Below are positions 1 through 11,696 of a DNA stretch of 26,270 nucleotides, piece by piece. Under the pieces are notes generated by a model. The model did no database searches, was not told the origin of the DNA, and saw nothing but the letters and a program-made list of their open reading frames with translations. Location of the stretch: the NCBI GenBank assembly GCA_012961305.1, contig DTZQ01000493.1:1-26270 (forward strand), in the 5' to 3' direction. Source of the stretch: Armatimonadota bacterium. GTDB taxonomy: Bacteria; Armatimonadota; UBA10988; DTZQ01. The translations under genes and the position numbers were made by a program. How positions within the stretch are numbered: position 1 is the first letter of the stretch; every line of letters begins with the position of its first letter.

Positions 1-52
1 GCGGGAATATCAGCCTCCGGCTGAGTAGTCACGAAAATTGGAGGACGGGTGT

Positions 53-1120
53 ATGTCTGAAGAAGTCCCTATGTTGCAGTTGCAGGATATTTGCCTGCGC
101 AAAGGTAACTTCTCCCTGGAGCACATTTCCTTCGCCGTGCAGCCGGGGGAGTGTTTCGTCCTTTTAGGGCCCACCGGCACGGGCAAGACCACCGTCTTGG
201 AGACCATCGCCGGGCTCAACCGTCCTCTGCACGGGGAGGTGTGGATTGATGGTCGGGCAGTTACCCATCTCAAGCCAGAACAGCGACAGATTAGTTACGT
301 CCCCCAGGACTATGCCTTGTTCCCCCACCTGCGGGTGATGGACAACCTAACCTTGGCCTGTCGGCTGCGGCGAATGCCCCGCCTGGAGATAGAAGGCCGG
401 CTGAGGGAACTGGTAGAACTGCTGCACTTGGAGCCTTTGTTGTCCCGCTGGCCCCACCACTTGAGCGGGGGGGAGAAACAGCGGGTGGCCCTGGCCCGGG
501 CCCTCATGATTCGGCCGCAGGTCCTACTTTTGGATGAACCCCTTTCGGCCCTGGATGCGGCCGCGCGCCGCTCCGTGCGGGGGGAGTTGAAACGAGTCCT
601 CAACCTGGCCCAGGCGACCACGATTATCGTGACCCACGATTACGTGGACGCTTTCACCTTCGGCGACCACATCGGGGTGATGGATAAGGGTCGCCTCGTC
701 CAAGTGGGCACGCGGGAGGAACTCCTTTTTGCCCCTAAAAGCAAGTTCATCGCTGAGTTCACGGGGGTCAACTTCTTCACTGGCTACATTGACCAAGCCA
801 GTGAGGATGGTTTGAAAATCGCCCGGGTAGGGGAAGTTTGCCTGTACTGTCTCTCGGAGTTGGAGGGGGAAGTGTTCCTTTCCTTCTTCCCCTCCGACGT
901 CACCCTGAGTCGCACTCCCCCCCAAGGTTCCGCCCGCAATGTGCTCAAAGGTGTGGTGCGAGACTTGGTGCACCTGGGCGACCGAGTGCGGGTGGGTCTG
1001 GATTGCGGCCTGCCTTTGGTGGCGGAAGTAACAGCGCAGGCGGTGGAGGAATTGCACCTACGGGAGGGGGATGAGGTGTTCGCCTCCTTCAAGGCCATTA
1101 GTGTCAAGACCTACCGGTGA
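53..1120 (+). CDS. modC: Molybdate/tungstate ABC transporter ATP-binding subunit (ModC/WtpC-like) with C-terminal TOBE domain
   Basis: Walker A GPTGTGKT, signature LSGGEKQRVALARAL, Walker B LLLDEP, H-loop VTHD, and a C-terminal TOBE with SARN. Start moved from 38 to ATG 53, which follows GGAGGA at 40-45. Confidence 0.85.
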   Translation: MSEEVPMLQLQDICLRKGNFSLEHISFAVQPGECFVLLGPTGTGKTTVLETIAGLNRPLHGEVWIDGRAVTHLKPEQRQISYVPQDYALFPHLRVMDNLTLACRLRRMPRLEIEGRLRELVELLHLEPLLSRWPHHLSGGEKQRVALARALMIRPQVLLLDEPLSALDAAARRSVRGELKRVLNLAQATTIIVTHDYVDAFTFGDHIGVMDKGRLVQVGTREELLFAPKSKFIAEFTGVNFFTGYIDQASEDGLKIARVGEVCLYCLSELEGEVFLSFFPSDVTLSRTPPQGSARNVLKGVVRDLVHLGDRVRVGLDCGLPLVAEVTAQAVEELHLREGDEVFASFKAISVKTYR

Positions 1121-3701: not shown

Positions 3702-4535
3702 GTGAGCCCCAAAGTCTGGTGGATAATTGGCGGGACGTTGGTCATCCTGTTGCTCATCTGGCAGGGGGTCCGGGTGGAAAGGGAAATTCATGCTACTGGC
3801 GCTGCGCCCAAACCGTTGTTAGAGAAAGGGGAGCGAAAAATTCAGGTTTTCGCTGGTGCGGCGAGCAAACCGGCCTTGGAGGAAGTGGCCCAGTTGTACG
3901 AGCAGCAGTATGGGACGAAAGTTGAGTGTACTTTCGGTGGTTCGGGGACCATGCTCTCCCAGATGCTTTTGGCTCAGCGGGGTGATGTGTACGTTCCCGG
4001 CTCGGATGACTTCATGGACAAAGCGGAGCAGAAGGGGGTGGTGGAGAAAGGTCGGCGGGAAATTGTGGCCTATCTCCTGCCGGTCATCGCCGTGCAGAAA
4101 GGCAATCCCCAGAACATCCAATCTTTGGAGGATTTGGCTCGGCCGGGGCTCCGAGTGGGCATTGCTCGCCCGGAAGCGGTCTGCTTAGGGGACATTGCGT
4201 TGGAGATTTTCGAGCAGGCCGGGTTGCGGGAGAAAATTGAACCCAACATCGTCACTCAGGCTACCAGTTGCTCCCACACCGCAGCCCTGGTCAAAATGAG
4301 GCAGGTGGACGCAGTTATCGGTTGGGATGTCTTTGCTGCCTGGTATCCGGAAGACATTGAGATGGTGCCGTTGCCCTCAGAACTGCGGCACTGGCGCTAC
4401 ATCCCCGCTGCGGTCACGAAGTTCGCCAGGGAGGAAAGGGAGGCGCAGCGGTTCGTGGATTTTCTCTGTTCCCAAACCGGAAAGGGAATTTTCCAAAGGC
4501 ACGGTTACACAGTTGTTGCTCCGGGGAGGGAGTAA
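3702..4535 (+). CDS. modA: Molybdate/tungstate ABC transporter substrate-binding protein
   Basis: N-terminal hydrophobic anchor; canonical FAGAAS and FGGSG oxyanion segments; AVQKGNPQNIQSLEDL. Extra Cys in EAVCLG and TSCSH. GTG start. Confidence 0.8.
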   Translation: MSPKVWWIIGGTLVILLLIWQGVRVEREIHATGAAPKPLLEKGERKIQVFAGAASKPALEEVAQLYEQQYGTKVECTFGGSGTMLSQMLLAQRGDVYVPGSDDFMDKAEQKGVVEKGRREIVAYLLPVIAVQKGNPQNIQSLEDLARPGLRVGIARPEAVCLGDIALEIFEQAGLREKIEPNIVTQATSCSHTAALVKMRQVDAVIGWDVFAAWYPEDIEMVPLPSELRHWRYIPAAVTKFAREEREAQRFVDFLCSQTGKGIFQRHGYTVVAPGRE

Positions 4536-4567
4536 AAGGCCGTAGGCTTTACCTTAGGAGGATGGGA

Positions 4568-5806
4568 ATGGGCGAGACTCTGATTAAAGCGGTAGACGTT
4601 TTCAAGTGCTGCATTTTAACCTGGGATTTCTTCCCGGTGGTCCTGCCGGCCTTTCTGATTGCAGGAGCGATACCGGTCTTTGTCCCGGCGGTGCACATTC
4701 TGCGCTATTTGGGCTATGGGGCTCGGAAAGTAGTAGCCTACACTGCGGCTTCCTTTTCCGGGTTCATCATCGCCATGTGTTCCTGCAACATCGTGCCCTT
4801 AGCGGCAAGCATTTACCGGCGGGGGGCTGGTATCGGACCGGCCTTTGCCTTTCTGTACGCCGGGCCGGCCATTAACTTCATTACCATGGTCTGGGTTTTT
4901 CAGGTAGTAGGGTGGCGCATGGGCCTGTGGCGGGCGGCTGCGGTGCCGATTATTGCTGTGCTCATTGGCCTGCTCATGCAGTTGATTTTCCGCCGGGAGG
5001 ACACCACCCGCCGGGTGCATTTTCAGGCCGTAGTCCAGCGCGAAATTTACACCGGAGAGGCTGTCCACCCCCAGAAGTTGGGCCTGCTTTTCGGGTTGCT
5101 CATTGGCATTTTAATTTTCGGGGCCAAGGGCCTGCCCTGGTGGCTGCGCTTCACCACGCTGGTAGTTTTCGGCGGGGGGCTAGTGCTGGTGGTCCGCCGG
5201 TGGTTCACACGGGAGGAGTTGCGGGATTGGCTGGAGGAGACCCTTCACTTCCTCAAATTGGTCCTGCCCATTCTGGTGTCGGCCATTCTGGCCATCGGCC
5301 TTGCCTTCCGCTACATCCCCATTAAATGGATGCATGACCACATTTATCCTTTGGTCGGCGACAATTCGCCCCGGGCCACTTTCATTGCTGCGGCGTTCGG
5401 CTCGGTGATGTATTTCCCCATCCTCACGGAGGTCGCCTTTACCAAGGCCCTGTTGAAGTACGAAATGTTGGGAGTAGGCCCGGCCCTGGCCATTCTGCTC
5501 AACGGCCCGGGGGTAAGCCTGCCGGGAGCCTTGCTGCTCCTGCGCATTTTCGGCTGGAAGAAGACGTTAGTTTACGAAGGACTGGAGATGTTCCTGGGCG
5601 GCTTAACGGCCATGTGGTTCGGACGATTATATGGCGAATATGTCTGCCCTTGCCAGACGGGGGAAGGGGCCAATCCGGTGGAGACCCTCATTGCCGTCAT
5701 AGTCATGATGGTGGTTATCGTCTTGGCGGCTTTCATCGTCTTTCGCTTTTCCTTGCCTCCCGCAGAGAAGGAGCCACCCTTAGCCCCGGAGGAAGCAAAG
5801 GCATGA
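4568..5806 (+). CDS. DUF318/ArsP-type permease
   Basis: MCSCNIVPLA, GAGIGPAFAFLYAGPAIN, a second half with MYFPILTEV and GPALAILLNGPGVSLP, and many TM segments. ATG 4568 has better spacing from AGGAGG than ATG 4562. Confidence 0.8.
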   Translation: MGETLIKAVDVFKCCILTWDFFPVVLPAFLIAGAIPVFVPAVHILRYLGYGARKVVAYTAASFSGFIIAMCSCNIVPLAASIYRRGAGIGPAFAFLYAGPAINFITMVWVFQVVGWRMGLWRAAAVPIIAVLIGLLMQLIFRREDTTRRVHFQAVVQREIYTGEAVHPQKLGLLFGLLIGILIFGAKGLPWWLRFTTLVVFGGGLVLVVRRWFTREELRDWLEETLHFLKLVLPILVSAILAIGLAFRYIPIKWMHDHIYPLVGDNSPRATFIAAAFGSVMYFPILTEVAFTKALLKYEMLGVGPALAILLNGPGVSLPGALLLLRIFGWKKTLVYEGLEMFLGGLTAMWFGRLYGEYVCPCQTGEGANPVETLIAVIVMMVVIVLAAFIVFRFSLPPAEKEPPLAPEEAKA

Positions 5807-6645
5807 AACGCATCGGCTGGCTTTTGAGTCTGGGACTGGTGGGGATTCTGGGGGGCTGTTCGCGCCCGGGGGGAGGTTCCTCTTCCCCACTCCCTCAGGG
5901 AACGACCCCCCCTCGGCAGGTGGAGGTCTTTGTGCCCTGTGGCATGATCATTCCCTTCAACAAGGTCAAAAGGCTGTTCCGGGAGCAGACGGGCCTGGAG
6001 GTGGACATTTTCTTCGAGAATGCGGTAAACCTGCTGAAGCGCATTCGCAAAGGGGCTCGTCCCGATGTGCTGGTCACGCCCGGGGAACTGGAGATGAAGC
6101 AGATGGAAGAGGAGGGTTACCTTGCTCCGGCAAGTGTGCGCACTTTTGGCACCTACCAACTCGTCCTCATCGTGCCCGGCCGCAACAAGGCTGGCATTAC
6201 TGCCCTTTCGGACCTAACCAAACCCTCGGTCAAACAAATTGCCATTGCCGACCCGGAGCAAAATTCGGTGGGCTACTATGCCCGCGAGGCCCTGAAAAAC
6301 CTGGGACTGTGGGAGGGGGTGCAGGATAAACTGGTGACCCATTGGCATGCCTTGCAGGCGGCGAAGTACGTGGTCAGCAGCCTGGTGGACGCGGGCCTTT
6401 ACTATGCTTCCTGTCCCTTTGACAGTGCGCCGGAGAAATTGGGCAACCGGCCCGGGCCCTACCGGGTCATTGAAGAGGTTCCGCCGGAGGCCTATCCGAA
6501 GGTTAAAGTGCAGGCGGGCCTCCTGCGGGAGGCTCCTCATCCGGCCGCGGGTTGGCAGTTTCTGGAGTTCCTGCTCTCTCCCCAAGCCCAGCACACCCTG
6601 GCCCAATGGGGCCTGCCCAATTACTCAAAGGAGGAAAACCCATGA
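5803..6645 (+). CDS. ModA-like lipoprotein with VPCG/YASC cysteine pair
   Basis: Lipoprotein signal MKRIGWLLSLGLVGILGG-C; ModA segments RPDVLV, IAIADPEQNSVGYYAREAL, FLEFLLSPQAQ. ATGA overlap with the permease stop. Confidence 0.8.
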   Translation: MKRIGWLLSLGLVGILGGCSRPGGGSSSPLPQGTTPPRQVEVFVPCGMIIPFNKVKRLFREQTGLEVDIFFENAVNLLKRIRKGARPDVLVTPGELEMKQMEEEGYLAPASVRTFGTYQLVLIVPGRNKAGITALSDLTKPSVKQIAIADPEQNSVGYYAREALKNLGLWEGVQDKLVTHWHALQAAKYVVSSLVDAGLYYASCPFDSAPEKLGNRPGPYRVIEEVPPEAYPKVKVQAGLLREAPHPAAGWQFLEFLLSPQAQHTLAQWGLPNYSKEENP

Positions 6646-7973
6646 AGAAAATGATTTTCGCCTGTTTGGTCGGGGCTCTCCTGCAGGGAGTCCTCGGCTG
6701 TGCCAAACCAAGTGAACAAGCAGGTCAGGCCGCCCCTCCCCCGGCCTTGCCGGAGGGCCTGGAGGAGCCCCAGGTATGGAAATTCACCTACGGGCCGGAG
6801 GAGGCCAAAGTGGTAGTGGAGGCCTTCTATCCCTTGACCGAGGCCCACCAGTGGGCGAAGGAAGTGGTGGAAAAGGTCTGTCAGGAGCATCCGGGCAAGG
6901 TGCGGGGCGTCGTGGTGGACTTTCGCCACGAGAAAGGCTCGGAGTTGTTTGTGCAAAAGGGGCTGACCTGTGGCACCATTCTCATCAACGGGGAGGACAC
7001 TTTCGATTTAGAGGGGCGCACCGTCATTTTCCAACAGGCGGAAGGGGGAATGTGGACCGAAGAGGATTTACGGCGCGTGGTGGCCCAGAAAGTGGAGGAG
7101 GCCTACGGAGCGACGGAAGGGGAGGAAGGTACGTCGGCAGAGACTTCGGCGGCGGCGCCGTCAGCCCAGACCCCTTCTCAGCCGAAAACCTCGCCTCCGA
7201 CTGCTCCCCCCCGCCTGGCGGGGGGACCGGCCCGACCGGAGGTCAAAGGAGAAGTTGAAGTCTACGTGCCCTGCGGAGTGGCTGGACCCTACGGGGAGGT
7301 CGCGGAGGCCTTTAAGGCCCAGTATCCCAACGTCCGGCTGCGCCCCCGGGTGGAAAATTTCTACGTCCTGCGCAATCGGGTGCGCGATGGAGCCACACCT
7401 GACGTGTTCCTCGTCTTCGGGCCCGTGGACTTAAAGCCCCTTGAGGAACGTGGGCGATTGGTTTCCGCCACCTACGTCAAATTGGCTAAAATTTCCCTGG
7501 CCCTCATTGTGCCCCCCAGCAATCCGGGGCAGGTGAAATCCCTGGAGGATTTGGCGGGGCCTGCGGTCAAGCAGATTGCCCTGGGCAAAGTGGACTTGGG
7601 TTCGGTGGGCTACTGCGCCCAACAGGCCCTCACCCGCGCCCAGTTGTGGGATAAGGTCAAAGACAAAGTTGTGGAAATCAAAATGCCCAGGCAACTAAAG
7701 GTCGTCGCCGCCGAGGGACAGGTAGAGGCAGCCATCGTGTTCAAAAGTTGTCTGTACGAAGCCCCCCGCCCCGGAAAGGAGCCAGAACCGCTCAAGGCTA
7801 CTTACATAGGCGACGTGCCCGCCCACCTGTACGACGAAATTGAGGTGGGCGCAGTGATGATAAAAGGCGCGCCTCACCCGGAGATGGCCCGCCTCCTGTT
7901 GGATTTTCTGGACTCCCCGGAAGTCAGAGCCACTTTTGTAAAGTGGTGGTTCACCCCTTTGGAGGAAGAGTGA
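6642..7973 (+). CDS. Lipoprotein: thioredoxin-like domain + Pro/Ala/Ser/Thr linker + ModA-like domain (VPCG/FKSC)
   Basis: Signal MKKMIFACLVGALLQGVLG-C; Trx-like strand-helix pattern (VVEAFYP...GLTCGTILING); ModA segments IVPPSNPGQVKSLEDL and LLDFLDSPE. ATGA overlap at 6642-6645. Confidence 0.75.
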   Translation: MKKMIFACLVGALLQGVLGCAKPSEQAGQAAPPPALPEGLEEPQVWKFTYGPEEAKVVVEAFYPLTEAHQWAKEVVEKVCQEHPGKVRGVVVDFRHEKGSELFVQKGLTCGTILINGEDTFDLEGRTVIFQQAEGGMWTEEDLRRVVAQKVEEAYGATEGEEGTSAETSAAAPSAQTPSQPKTSPPTAPPRLAGGPARPEVKGEVEVYVPCGVAGPYGEVAEAFKAQYPNVRLRPRVENFYVLRNRVRDGATPDVFLVFGPVDLKPLEERGRLVSATYVKLAKISLALIVPPSNPGQVKSLEDLAGPAVKQIALGKVDLGSVGYCAQQALTRAQLWDKVKDKVVEIKMPRQLKVVAAEGQVEAAIVFKSCLYEAPRPGKEPEPLKATYIGDVPAHLYDEIEVGAVMIKGAPHPEMARLLLDFLDSPEVRATFVKWWFTPLEEE

Positions 7974-8216
7974 ATGCGCCTGCTCGTGTTCACCGATGAA
8001 AGCGAGGAGAGCCAGCGGCAAAAGCAAATCGCCTGGGGCGTGGCCCGTCGCTTTCCCCAGGTGGAAGTGGTGGAACTGCCCTTAACTGGCGAGGAGGCCC
8101 AACGCCGGGGCATTCCCCGTGCACCAGCAGTAGTGGCAGAGGGGTTCATCCTCTCGGTAGGAAAATTGTTGTCCGCGGGTCAACTGCGAAGGTTCCTGGA
8201 GCGAAAGGTAGCCTGA
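7974..8216 (+). CDS. Small thioredoxin-fold protein lacking CxxC
   Basis: Aligns by eye with the next gene (EEAQRRGIPRAPAVV vs EEADQYGVVMTPTVM) and contains no Cys. It abuts the previous stop (TGA-ATG), and its own stop overlaps the next ATG. Confidence 0.65.
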   Translation: MRLLVFTDESEESQRQKQIAWGVARRFPQVEVVELPLTGEEAQRRGIPRAPAVVAEGFILSVGKLLSAGQLRRFLERKVA

Positions 8217-8485
8217 TGGTCACCATTACCATCATCAAGGCCCCTACGCCCTGCCCGCAATGTCATTTGGCGGAACAGGTGGCCCAACAAGTGGCCGAAA
8301 ATTACCCCGGTGAGGTCGCGGTGAAGGTTCTCAGTGTACTGGACGAGGAGGCCGACCAGTACGGGGTGGTAATGACCCCGACGGTGATGGTGGACGATGT
8401 AATCGTCAGCGTGCGAAAAGCCCCCCGGCGGGAGCGTCTTGCAGCCTTGATTGCTCGGAAATTGGGATGTTTGCCGAATACTTGA
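8216..8485 (+). CDS. Small thioredoxin-family protein (Thioredoxin_3-like), CPQC
   Basis: PCPQC active site, YGVVMTPTVMVD cis-Pro segment, TGATG coupling. Confidence 0.85.
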   Translation: MVTITIIKAPTPCPQCHLAEQVAQQVAENYPGEVAVKVLSVLDEEADQYGVVMTPTVMVDDVIVSVRKAPRRERLAALIARKLGCLPNT

Positions 8486-8510
8486 CAAAAAAAGATGATA
8501 GGAGTATAAT
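8482..8510 (+). promoter_or_regulatory. sigma70-type promoter, perfect consensus
   Basis: TTGACA 8482-8487, 17-nt spacer, TATAAT 8505-8510, upstream of the MerR-family gene. Confidence 0.85.
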
Positions 8511-8577
8511 AAATAAAAGTGCCCCCAATGCTAAGGGCCAAATTGCCCGGGAGGCCCGTTTGTGGCGAAGGTTCATC

Positions 8578-9255
8578 ATGCGACCGGCGAAGAAACAAGA
8601 AGGTGTTTATACCATTGGAGTGGCGACCAAGTTGCTGGGGGTTCATCACCGCACGCTACGCATTTACGAGGAGGAAGGGCTCATTCTCCCCCAGCGGGAC
8701 CCTAAGAACAATCGGCGGCTTTATTCCGACCAGGACTTGGTCTGGATTCGCTGCATTCGCCAACTCATTCACCAGGGCGGTCTCACCGTCAAGGCCATCC
8801 GCCGCTTATTGGATTTAGTGCCCTGCTGGGAGATTAAACACTGCCCGGAGGAACAGTGGCGTCGGTGCTTGCCCAACTTGAACATTCCCCATATGAAATT
8901 GCCTCCCCAGGTGGCTCCCCCGGAACTGCTCTTGGAGGGAAAAAAGGCCCGAGCCGAGAAAACGGTGGAAATCAAACTTTTCTATGGGGTGCGGGAATTT
9001 GGGGCAATTTTGCCCTGTTCCAAGTGCATTAAAGCCGAGCGCGTTCTTCGCAAAGTGGCCCAGAGGTTTGGGGACCGAATTACCATCGTGAAGTACGAGG
9101 CTTCCTCGCCGGAAGCAGACCGCTATGAGGTGCTTCTCACCCCTACCATTTTCCTGGACGAGGAGCCGTTGGTGATAGGCGGGGTTCCTTCGGAGCCGGC
9201 GTTAGAGAGGGCGATTGAAAAGTCCTTGGCAAGTAGAAGGGAAAGTGGGGAATAA
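8578..9255 (+). CDS. MerR-family regulator with Cys-rich CW motif and C-terminal thioredoxin domain
   Basis: YTIGVATKLLGVHHRTLRIYEEEGL...RRLYS HTH, then PCWEIKHC...C, then PCSKC and TPT in a Trx domain. The start is set at ATG 8578 because the promoter lies inside the longer ORF-track call. Confidence 0.85.
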   Translation: MRPAKKQEGVYTIGVATKLLGVHHRTLRIYEEEGLILPQRDPKNNRRLYSDQDLVWIRCIRQLIHQGGLTVKAIRRLLDLVPCWEIKHCPEEQWRRCLPNLNIPHMKLPPQVAPPELLLEGKKARAEKTVEIKLFYGVREFGAILPCSKCIKAERVLRKVAQRFGDRITIVKYEASSPEADRYEVLLTPTIFLDEEPLVIGGVPSEPALERAIEKSLASRRESGE

Positions 9256-10603: not shown

Positions 10604-11476
10604 ATGAATGAGCGAAGGAAACTCTACGGCGAATGTCTGGCCGAGTTCATTGGCACCTTTATCCTGGTGTTCTTCGGCGTCGGCTCAGTTCACACGGCGG
10701 TCTCCACGCAGGCGCAAGCCGGACTGTGGCAGGTAGCGGTAGTGTGGGGAGTGGCTATCGCCTTGGCCATCTACGCGACAGGGGCGGTAAGCGGCTGTCA
10801 CATCAACCCGGCCATTACCCTGGCTTTCGCGGCCTGGCAGGGGTTCCCCTGGCGGAAAGTGCTGCCCTACATTGCTGCTCAGGTCGCCGGAGCCTTTGCC
10901 GCTGCTGCTGTACTCTATGGACTATTCCACGGTGCCATTGCCCATTTTGAGGCCCAGCACAGCATCGTGCGCGGCCAGCCGGGCAGCCAACTGTCGGCCA
11001 TGATGTACGGCGAATATTTCCCCAATCCGGCCATCTTAGGCACCGATGCCGCCGCTTGGGCCCAAGTTTCCCACTTGCAAGCCTTTTGCGCGGAACTCGT
11101 CGGCACGGCTTTTTTGGCCTTTTTCGTCTTTGCCCTGGTGGACCCCCAAAACTGGGGAGCGCCACGGGGAAATATGTTCGCTTTGTTCATCGGCTTGACG
11201 GTGTCCATCGTCATCTCCATCATTGCTCCCCTCACCCAAGCGGCCCTGAACCCTGCCCGGGACTTCGGTCCGCGACTATGGGCCCTGCTGGCCGGTTGGG
11301 GACCTATTGCCATTCCCGGCCCCCGTGGCGGGTTCTTTACCGTGTACATTCTGGCCCCCCTCTGGGGAGGCCTGTTGGGTGGATTAGTCTATGAACGGTT
11401 AATTGTACCGTTCCGAAAGGTTTCCAAGACCGGAGAACAGGAGGTTGCTTTAGATGAGGGAAAGGGTCGAGGTTAA
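10604..11476 (+). CDS. glpF: MIP-family aquaglyceroporin (GlpF-type)
   Basis: Two NPA boxes, SGCHINPA and ALNPARDFGPR (NPARD is the glyceroporin signature); AEFIGT and AELVGT. ATG 10604 follows GGAGG. Confidence 0.85.
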   Translation: MNERRKLYGECLAEFIGTFILVFFGVGSVHTAVSTQAQAGLWQVAVVWGVAIALAIYATGAVSGCHINPAITLAFAAWQGFPWRKVLPYIAAQVAGAFAAAAVLYGLFHGAIAHFEAQHSIVRGQPGSQLSAMMYGEYFPNPAILGTDAAAWAQVSHLQAFCAELVGTAFLAFFVFALVDPQNWGAPRGNMFALFIGLTVSIVISIIAPLTQAALNPARDFGPRLWALLAGWGPIAIPGPRGGFFTVYILAPLWGGLLGGLVYERLIVPFRKVSKTGEQEVALDEGKGRG

Positions 11477-11696
11477 AGTCCCCGAATTCGAAACGGAGTG
11501 CCAGGCCTACCTGAGTTTCTGGTACAAACAGGAGGGAGAAGAGGTCACGGCGGGGGAAGATTTGGTTGAGTTCGAGACCGACAAGGCAGCCGTCACTGTG
11601 GAGGCTCCAGCCACGGGCAAACTGGCGCAAATTTTCGTGGGCGAGGATGAAGAAATCACCAGCGGGCAGGTGGTGGGCATTATTGAAGCCATCTAA
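11454..11696 (+). CDS. Stand-alone lipoyl-domain protein
   Basis: W...GEEVTAGEDLVEFETDKAAVTVEAPATGKL: the lipoylation motif ETDKA is intact. 80 aa with no catalytic domain; overlaps the aquaporin end by 23 nt. Confidence 0.85.
   Translation: MRERVEVKVPEFETECQAYLSFWYKQEGEEVTAGEDLVEFETDKAAVTVEAPATGKLAQIFVGEDEEITSGQVVGIIEAI

Follow-up and report, generated by a model that had tools for sequence, protein, structure and literature searches.

The stretch of DNA analysed here (the window, 26,270 nucleotides) is the complete contig C493 of a 4.4-Mb metagenome-assembled genome (MAG) whose relatives are Fervidibacter-like Armatimonadota from hot springs. Between positions 38 and 11476 it carries a dense run of plus-strand genes that includes two adjacent genes for ModA-like substrate-binding proteins (SBPs), each distinguished by a pair of cysteines. 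The first, paralog 1, is the open reading frame (ORF) at 5803..6645 (+ strand); it represents the type that we call SBP-A and matches PF13531 with an E-value of 2e-46. The second, paralog 2, is the ORF at 6642..7973 (+) and consists of a thioredoxin-like (TrxL) domain, a linker and a second SBP domain, SBP-B (PF13531, E 6.6e-40). Both are lipoproteins, of 280 aa with the lipobox LGGC (Cys19) in the case of paralog 1 and of 443 aa with the lipobox VLGC (Cys20) in the case of paralog 2. Each start (5803 and 6642) shares an ATGA with the stop codon of the gene before it and is served by a strong Shine-Dalgarno site; the start of paralog 2 is the ATG at 6642, not the position 6639. An ArsP_1-family permease gene (4562..5806, +; PF03773, E 3e-50) lies immediately upstream of the pair, and two small thioredoxin_3-type genes (7974..8485, +) follow it, the first of them directly abutting paralog 2.

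The AlphaFold2 (AF2) model of paralog 1 has the ModA fold (pLDDT 95.4). Foldseek searches with this model returned ModA structures as the top matches, with TM-scores of 0.74–0.78, and WtpA structures were weaker. Both paralogs pass the cut-off of the NCBI modA model TIGR01256 (109.1 and 70.9 bits against 62.5). The labels obtained from Atlas and Foldseek are generic molybdate-binding ones only, and the relatives carry the database name molybdate-binding protein, so a first-pass annotation made from the sequence was right to expect that automatic annotation would call these proteins ModA. A match to PF12974 is weak (E 6e-5) and under the cut-off. For paralog 2, the AF2 model (pLDDT 88) comprises a thioredoxin-like N-terminal domain, a disordered linker and the SBP domain (residues 181–412, 7248..7943, +). 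The TrxL domain (6780..7106, +; alignment A5) has a thioredoxin-like order of strands and helices in the AF2 model, with pLDDT >90. It has no CxxC motif and instead conserves EAFYP..H.W and a single Cys in GL(S/T)CG (GLTCG, 6969–6971). An Atlas search with TrxL gave thioredoxin-type clusters, which were taken as leads only.

Although fold and family hidden Markov models (PF13531, TIGR01256) thus assign both proteins to ModA, the residues that line the ModA pocket (Ser12, Ser39, Ala125, Val152 and Tyr170, in E. coli numbering) are not retained as a set. All five pocket segments are altered, to VPCG, (D/E)N, NSVG or GSVG, HWHA (in paralog 1 only) and Y/F-x-S-C. The signature of paralog 1 reads FVPCG / ENAV / NSVG / HWHA / YYASCPF, with FVPCG at 5929–5943, ENAV at 6016–6027, NSVG at 6262–6273 and YYASC at 6400–6414 (+). 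In paralog 2 the corresponding motifs are YVPCG (7263–7277), ENFY (7353–7364), GSVG (7599–7610) and VFKSC(LYE) (7737–7751), also on the + strand. The parallel substitutions that the first-pass annotation had listed for the two lipoproteins are therefore all present where it placed them. HMMER alignment to solved ModA chains equates Cys46 with A11, Gly47 with Ser12, Ala74 with Ser39, Val156 with Ala125, Ala183 with Val152 and Tyr201 with Tyr170, and Cys204 stands three residues past the Tyr170 equivalent. Positions 125 and 152 contribute through the backbone only. Paralog 2 has Phe at both the Ser39 and the Tyr170 positions.

Cys46 (Cys1; codon 5938..5940, +) lies in lobe I at the N-terminus of helix 1, and Cys204 (Cys2; codon 6412..6414, +) in the lobe II loop that follows the Tyr170-equivalent strand. 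These two are the sole cysteines of mature paralog 1; their counterparts in paralog 2 are Cys211 (7272–7274, +) and Cys370 (7749–7751, +). In a profile alignment, Cys204 also starts an insertion of ~8 residues (CPFDSAPEK) that is absent from ordinary ModA. The alignments to known structures bear out the earlier prediction of one Cys just before the Ser12 position and another three past Tyr170, on opposite lobes, and together with the model they place one invariant Cys of each lobe at the cleft. Compared with the characterised ModA and WtpA proteins (PF13531, TIGR01256; PDB 1AMF/1WOD, 4KD5, 8ZJ6 and 3CFZ), the new proteins share the two-lobe fold with its cleft at helix N-termini, a mostly retained Tyr170 equivalent and a location of their genes beside ModB/WtpB- and WtpC-like ABC parts. 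They differ in the replacement of both ligand serines, in the new pocket signatures, in the Cys on each lobe and in the insertion of about eight residues. Here, moreover, A- and B-type proteins occur in pairs, accompanied by a Cys-rich permease of the ArsP family and a thioredoxin-like domain.

The first-pass annotation had taken the loss of both serines as a rebuilding of the oxyanion site. The loss itself is confirmed (Ser12 to Gly, Ser39 to Ala or Phe), but an oxyanion site is not thereby abolished, because the serine contacts of ModA are given as backbone N-H contacts (PMC11734730). In addition, the Tyr170 equivalent is retained in 76% of members of the wider group described below, and Asn73 and Ser155 are newly conserved polar residues of the pocket. 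Acidic residues are conserved as well, with D or E at position 72 in 76% and E at position 97 in 92%; we assign them no equivalence to the two carboxylates that coordinate the metal directly in tungstate-binding proteins of the octahedral WtpA type.

Relatives were sought by a word-indexed search and then by an exhaustive HMMER search, which gave 7477 matches. The former yielded ~30 close relatives, all with both Cys; in the latter, both Cys were found in 83 of the best 150 cluster representatives. Among 183 aligned domains, 113 have both Cys, 60 have neither and 10 have a single one; related sequences in these counts are not independent. This co-occurrence, with only 10 discordant cases, and the invariance of the pair among diverse members argue that the pair has not arisen by chance. 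In a set of 48 diverse members (26–70% identical to paralog 1, mostly ~30%), the sole invariant columns are P, C, G, D, G and C, that is, the Pro-Cys of VPCG, three Gly/Asp positions and Cys2. A tree separates the Cys-type domains from ordinary ModA by a branch with a support of 0.97. The PCG...SC subfamily that had been proposed from the two window proteins alone thus turns out to be a large clade. Its consensus at the pocket segments is V-P-C-G-M, D-N, an invariant Gly94 followed by Glu97, N-S-V-G and Y-x-T/S-C-P. Lentisphaerota, Bacillota and Armatimonadota contribute members, known from MAGs of groundwater and lakes, and the clade is not limited to thermophiles. Three variants that lack Cys1 (PQG or PMG in its place) have a new Cys in the loop equivalent to that of Val152, which suggests that the thiols serve the site rather than the fold or a structural bond. 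A literature search on Cys-lined ModA, thiomolybdate uptake proteins and DUF318 partners found no characterisation of the clade. We read it as a new, probably thiol-dependent variant of the ModA type, with the fold and family profile of ModA and a different pocket.

These data bear on an alternative in which the proteins are ordinary molybdate or tungstate SBPs and the Cys pair is merely a stabilising or regulatory disulfide that provides thermostability or redox tuning. Such a view is in keeping with the modA cut-off being passed by both proteins and with the retention of the Tyr170 equivalent and the backbone N-H donors. It also has precedents, since oxyanion binding survives engineered cross-cleft disulfides (PMC11350598) and since a redox-sensitive disulfide shifts the affinity of Acinetobacter baumannii ModA 170-fold (PMC11734730). 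The latter pair, C141–C189, resembles ours in being a reversible disulfide that sets ligand affinity. However, it lies within one lobe (lobe B), is known from a single species and leaves a normal pocket unchanged; with the Cys positions different, we set it aside as an explanation. What an ordinary SBP would leave unaccounted for is the distinct signature conserved in five pocket segments, beyond the two Cys, in a clade that is old, diverse and found beyond thermophiles. Moreover, an inter-lobe bond is no passive stabiliser in a protein that opens and closes, and the thioredoxin-like partners, being obligatory, point to an active chemistry of the thiols. We therefore regard an ordinary SBP with an incidental disulfide as quite unlikely.

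Selenocysteine (Sec) variants, which the first-pass annotation had suggested looking for, did not turn up: none was seen in the cases checked, where no TGA stands at the Cys sites, and no SelD scored above the cut-off in the host genome. An N-terminally short sequence, P0028, was considered as a Sec variant and proved to have a mis-called start and a normal Cys. Two SBP-A genes, in loci L031 (2770–3654) and L034 (6045–6965), contain one in-frame stop each, TGA in the former and another codon in the latter. Both stops are at non-Cys positions, so neither was accepted as Sec, and the genes are probably pseudogenes or contain sequencing errors.

Engineered ModA proteins provide further insight into how the two Cys may be arranged. 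In E. coli ModA A11C/R153C (PDB 3AXF), an inter-lobe bond joins position 11 to R153C in the other lobe. Among the cross-lobe disulfides designed for the ModA/WtpA protein of Acidithiobacillus ferrooxidans, G9C/A166C was the best in energy; it lies in the pocket beside a metal-coordinating Glu, and it raised the affinity (PMC11350598). By chain position, these two sites appear to be near the natural pair. Since Cys46 falls on the engineered A11C and in view of the A. ferrooxidans design, the pair seems well placed to meet across the closed cleft. The likeness is that a Cys at position 11 is paired with a Cys of a pocket loop in the other lobe, and the engineered bond shuts the anion in and makes its exchange slower. 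The engineered proteins are laboratory designs in an otherwise normal oxyanion pocket, whereas the pair described here is natural and invariant in its clade, uses another second loop and has dedicated thioredoxin-type partners.

The genomic context of the clade was examined in 39 distinct loci from metagenomes and MAGs, collected with alignment A3 of the closer relatives, and their ORFs were labelled by phmmer. The loci span Fervidibacter species, other Armatimonadota, Bacillota, Lentisphaerota/Victivallales and 'Zipacnadia', and are skewed to Armatimonadota; as contigs are often short, the counts of neighbours are lower bounds. The recurrent order is a MoeB-like ThiF-family gene, the ArsP_1 permease, SBP-A, TrxL with SBP-B, and a ModB/WtpB-like permease, beyond which some loci add genes for a WtpC-like ATPase, for a cysteine desulfurase resembling NifS and for a thioredoxin_3 protein. 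ArsP_1 is found in 30 of the 39 loci, TrxL in 26, MoeB in 17, a ModB-type gene in 15 and NifS in 5. Against NCBIfam models, the permease, ATPase, ThiF-family and aminotransferase genes are best matched by ModB/WtpB, WtpC, MoeB and NifS, respectively. Wherever the ModB/WtpB-like gene is present (15/39), it is accompanied by a more ordinary ModA-like domain.

TrxL and SBP-B occur in three arrangements: as separate genes, as the two-domain fusion seen in the window, and as a three-domain fusion of ~680 aa that ends in an ordinary ModA-like domain. Stand-alone TrxL homologues are encoded in L007, L008, L009 and L012, and in L007 and L009 an exported CxxC thioredoxin stands at the head of the operon. 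L008 belongs to the host genome itself, which holds a second, partial copy of the module on another contig (G000 contig C117, 2189–4224, − strand). It contains an SBP-B type gene, a 137-aa membrane-anchored TrxL and an SBP-A type gene whose product is 71% identical to paralog 1; the module is cut by the contig end and is followed by mreC/mreD. In L011 (2905–8138), ExbB-ExbD-TonB genes and a TonB-dependent receptor gene stand directly before the permease, two Cys-type SBPs and a thioredoxin_3 gene, an arrangement that hints at outer-membrane uptake.

The permease is the most constant of these neighbours. In the window its gene is translationally coupled to that of paralog 1 by the ATGA overlap. 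Alignment A4 of this ArsP_1 subfamily shows six invariant Cys in three vicinal pairs, C16–C17, C73-x-C75 and C362-P-C364, which form the motifs FxCC (close to the N-terminus), CSC (within the membrane) and YxCPC (ahead of a last helix). From its sequence, this pattern looks like a transmembrane thiol relay. A complex prediction for the permease with mature SBP-A scored 0.16 against a mark of 0.32, which we count as evidence neither way. Of the two small genes downstream of paralog 2, that at 8216–8485 encodes a CPQC thioredoxin_3 protein of the MTH895/ArsE family. The other, at 7974–8216, encodes a Cys-less protein of 80 aa with no Pfam match; it looks like a degenerate copy of the neighbouring thioredoxin_3 gene and has a homologue beside NifS in L032.

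With this permease beside the SBPs, we weighed whether the Cys pair could be a clamp for a soft metal or metalloid, as the first-pass annotation had proposed. The pair would bind As(III), Sb(III), Hg(II), Cu(I) or a similar ion and exchange it by way of thiols with the ArsP-family permease, in the manner of MerP and MerT. In that system a membrane protein with vicinal Cys pairs receives the thiophilic ion from an outer Cys-pair protein, and cytoplasmic thiols take it over in turn. MerP is, however, a small ferredoxin-like HMA protein, and mer genes are absent here. Several features speak for such a clamp: the translational coupling of ArsP_1 to SBP-A, with the two adjoining in 30/39 loci, the three invariant vicinal Cys pairs of the permease, the small thioredoxin of the MTH895/ArsE family and, downstream in the window, DGC proteins, a MerR-thioredoxin regulator and an aquaporin. 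These last three, on the other hand, are limited to the lineage of the window (1/39 loci), and no ars, mer or cop genes were found in any of the surveyed loci. As(III) sites are mostly built from three sulfurs, which also counts against a clamp made of two.

Two described systems lend the clamp some plausibility by analogy. AioX is an oxyanion-type periplasmic SBP that has gained a cleft Cys with which it bonds arsenite (PMC5908839). It is, however, a PhnD relative with a single Cys that signals to a histidine kinase, whereas the proteins described here have two Cys, the ModA fold and a transport context, and no histidine-kinase domain, as would go with AioX, ArxX or ArrX, was detected among the window ORFs scanned. 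The SAO system (SaoB/SaoX, SaoE and SaoT) is an uncharacterised system of anaerobes (Haft and Gwadz, bioRxiv 10.1101/2022.07.06.499078). Like the present module, it combines an ABC importer with extra lipoprotein SBPs whose Cys (or Sec) converge in the cleft, an ArsP-family permease with CSC (residues 73–75 here) and a small thioredoxin-like protein (8216–8485 here). The window permease matches the SaoE model only weakly, at 66.8 bits with a cut-off of 325. Furthermore, the SAO SBPs, with their CU/CC motifs, resemble 4NMY and 2X26 rather than ModA, and SAO includes a MerB-like SaoL and selenocysteine where the present system has a Mod/Wtp and MoeB context; Pfam scans of the larger ORFs of the window gave no MerB-like match.

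A further point against the clamp is that SBP-B is fused to an ordinary ModA-like domain and that genes for ModB/WtpB, WtpC, MoeB and NifS lie alongside, which connects the set with Mo and W. Uptake is also the usual role of an SBP, which would be odd for a toxic ion. A soft-metal or metalloid clamp therefore seems to us an unlikely function, if one deserving of consideration. The conserved ModB/WtpB, WtpC-like, MoeB and NifS context points to Mo or W transport and to sulfur transfer for the molybdenum cofactor, not to arsenic. Of the earlier proposal of a new class, then, a distinct specificity or mechanism is upheld, whereas the arsenic-like ligand is not what the conserved context suggests, and a latch is as likely as a dithiolate clamp.

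MoeB (17/39 loci) and the NifS-like desulfurase (5/39) could instead be read as the users of a reactive sulfur or selenium species, such as a persulfide, polysulfide or selenotrisulfide, that the SBPs would carry between their Cys. The thioredoxin-type partners and the relay-like Cys pairs of the permease would suit such a carrier. Yet MoeB and NifS are cytoplasmic and act on cysteine, so that imported sulfur is unneeded, and the genome has no SelD above the cut-off. A carrier of this kind also leaves the ordinary ModA-like fusion and the ModB-type importer unexplained, and we consider it highly improbable.

Taken together, our results make it somewhat more probable than otherwise that the clade serves the thiol-dependent capture of Mo or W species, in place of the binding by hydrogen bonds only that is typical of ModA. 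The Cys pair would supply ligands to the cargo directly or form a disulfide latch; between these two chemistries the likelihood is roughly even. SBP-A, the CxxC-less TrxL and SBP-B would act as a set, usually preceded by the Cys-pair ArsP-family permease and often fused to an ordinary ModA-like domain that would feed a ModB/WtpB-type ABC importer. Closure of the lobes may bring the two sulfurs together at the bound species, where they would either ligate it as thiolates or form a disulfide latch over the cargo. The thioredoxin-type partners could then reset the thiols and let the transporter take over what was bound. A Mo or W species is the most likely cargo, as the oxyanion or as one of the thio-forms of sulfidic water.

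Several observations weigh against thiol-dependent Mo or W capture. The ABC parts score under the NCBI equivalog cut-offs for Mod/Wtp, so that the substrate is not certain. The most constant neighbour is a permease of the ArsP family, whose characterised members act in the export of organoarsenicals or Cu/Zn. A Mo/W transporter could also have MoeB and NifS next to it for reasons unconnected with the Cys proteins. Finally, although the four AOR-type tungstoenzyme genes of the host genome speak for such capture, AOR genes occur in just two of five other genomes with the system, which means that the link is at best to Mo/W in general and not to tungsten in particular.

Thiol-dependent capture is favoured by the expectation that tungsten takes the form of WS4(2-) under sulfidic conditions (PMC9246946). 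A bolder version of Mo/W capture, which we put forward tentatively and hold to be rather doubtful as it stands, is that the module is an undescribed route for acquiring W or Mo from sulfidic water, in which thio-tungstate, thio-molybdate or the metal itself is captured by protein thiolates. Its parts would be the two Cys-pair SBPs, the CxxC-less TrxL, the three-Cys-pair permease and the small thioredoxins. A thiol/disulfide relay would hand the cargo to the ordinary ModA-like domain and the ABC importer, or would move it through the Cys-lined permease.

The remaining genes of the run surround the module on both sides, all on the + strand. At its upstream end, 38..1120 encodes an ABC ATPase with a TOBE domain, whose best family match is the tungstate ATPase WtpC and whose next is ModC. 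The permease that would match this ATPase lies outside the window, beyond the contig start. Three independent assemblies (the window, L044 and L045) each end no more than ~100 bp upstream of that gene; probably, a repeat or an assembly-resistant element is located at the break, where the gene for the matching ABC permease is expected. Directly after the ATPase gene, 1192–1944 encodes a ModA-fold protein without a signal peptide that holds several Cys (FCSLVP, GGCPKG, DGCG and FCCF) and may be a cytoplasmic binding protein. It is followed by the genes of an ABC-2 exporter pair and then by a more ordinary ModA-like SBP (3702..4535; FAGAAS / FGGSG), which is anchored in the membrane through an uncleaved N-terminal helix. 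This SBP represents the domain type that is fused behind SBP-B in other genomes. It, too, has Cys at pocket-equivalent positions, in AVCLG (the VPAG segment) and TSCSH (the Val152 segment).

Downstream of the small thioredoxin genes, 8467–9255 encodes the MerR-type regulator, which contains the Cys-rich segment VPCWEIKHCPEEQWRRC and a C-terminal thioredoxin_3 domain. Two genes for DGC proteins and an aquaporin (MIP) gene then complete the run, which ends at 11476. A gene for a stand-alone lipoyl/biotinyl-type domain of 80 aa (~11454–11696; 11539–11781 in L044) overlaps the 3' end of the aquaporin gene, and no E1, E2 or E3 genes are found near it.

The clade comprises at least 83 clusters at 50% identity, from Armatimonadota, Lentisphaerota, Bacillota and others, and its uniform mislabelling as molybdate-binding affects the inferences about metal transport that are drawn from metagenomes. 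The pairing of an SBP with an ArsP-family permease and a thioredoxin also bears on the role of a very common cassette of this permease and a small thioredoxin. A natural counterpart of the engineered disulfide lock would be of interest to protein engineers who aim to capture Mo, Re and Tc. An orthologue is present in Fervidibacter sacchari, a relative in culture, which makes these ideas testable. Hot springs, euxinic basins and models of the early Earth all raise the question of how microorganisms acquire Mo and W once sulfide has turned the oxyanions into thio-forms. If the proposal is true, a binding protein that uses sulfur chemistry on a ModA scaffold would offer a direct handle on Mo and W acquisition under sulfide.

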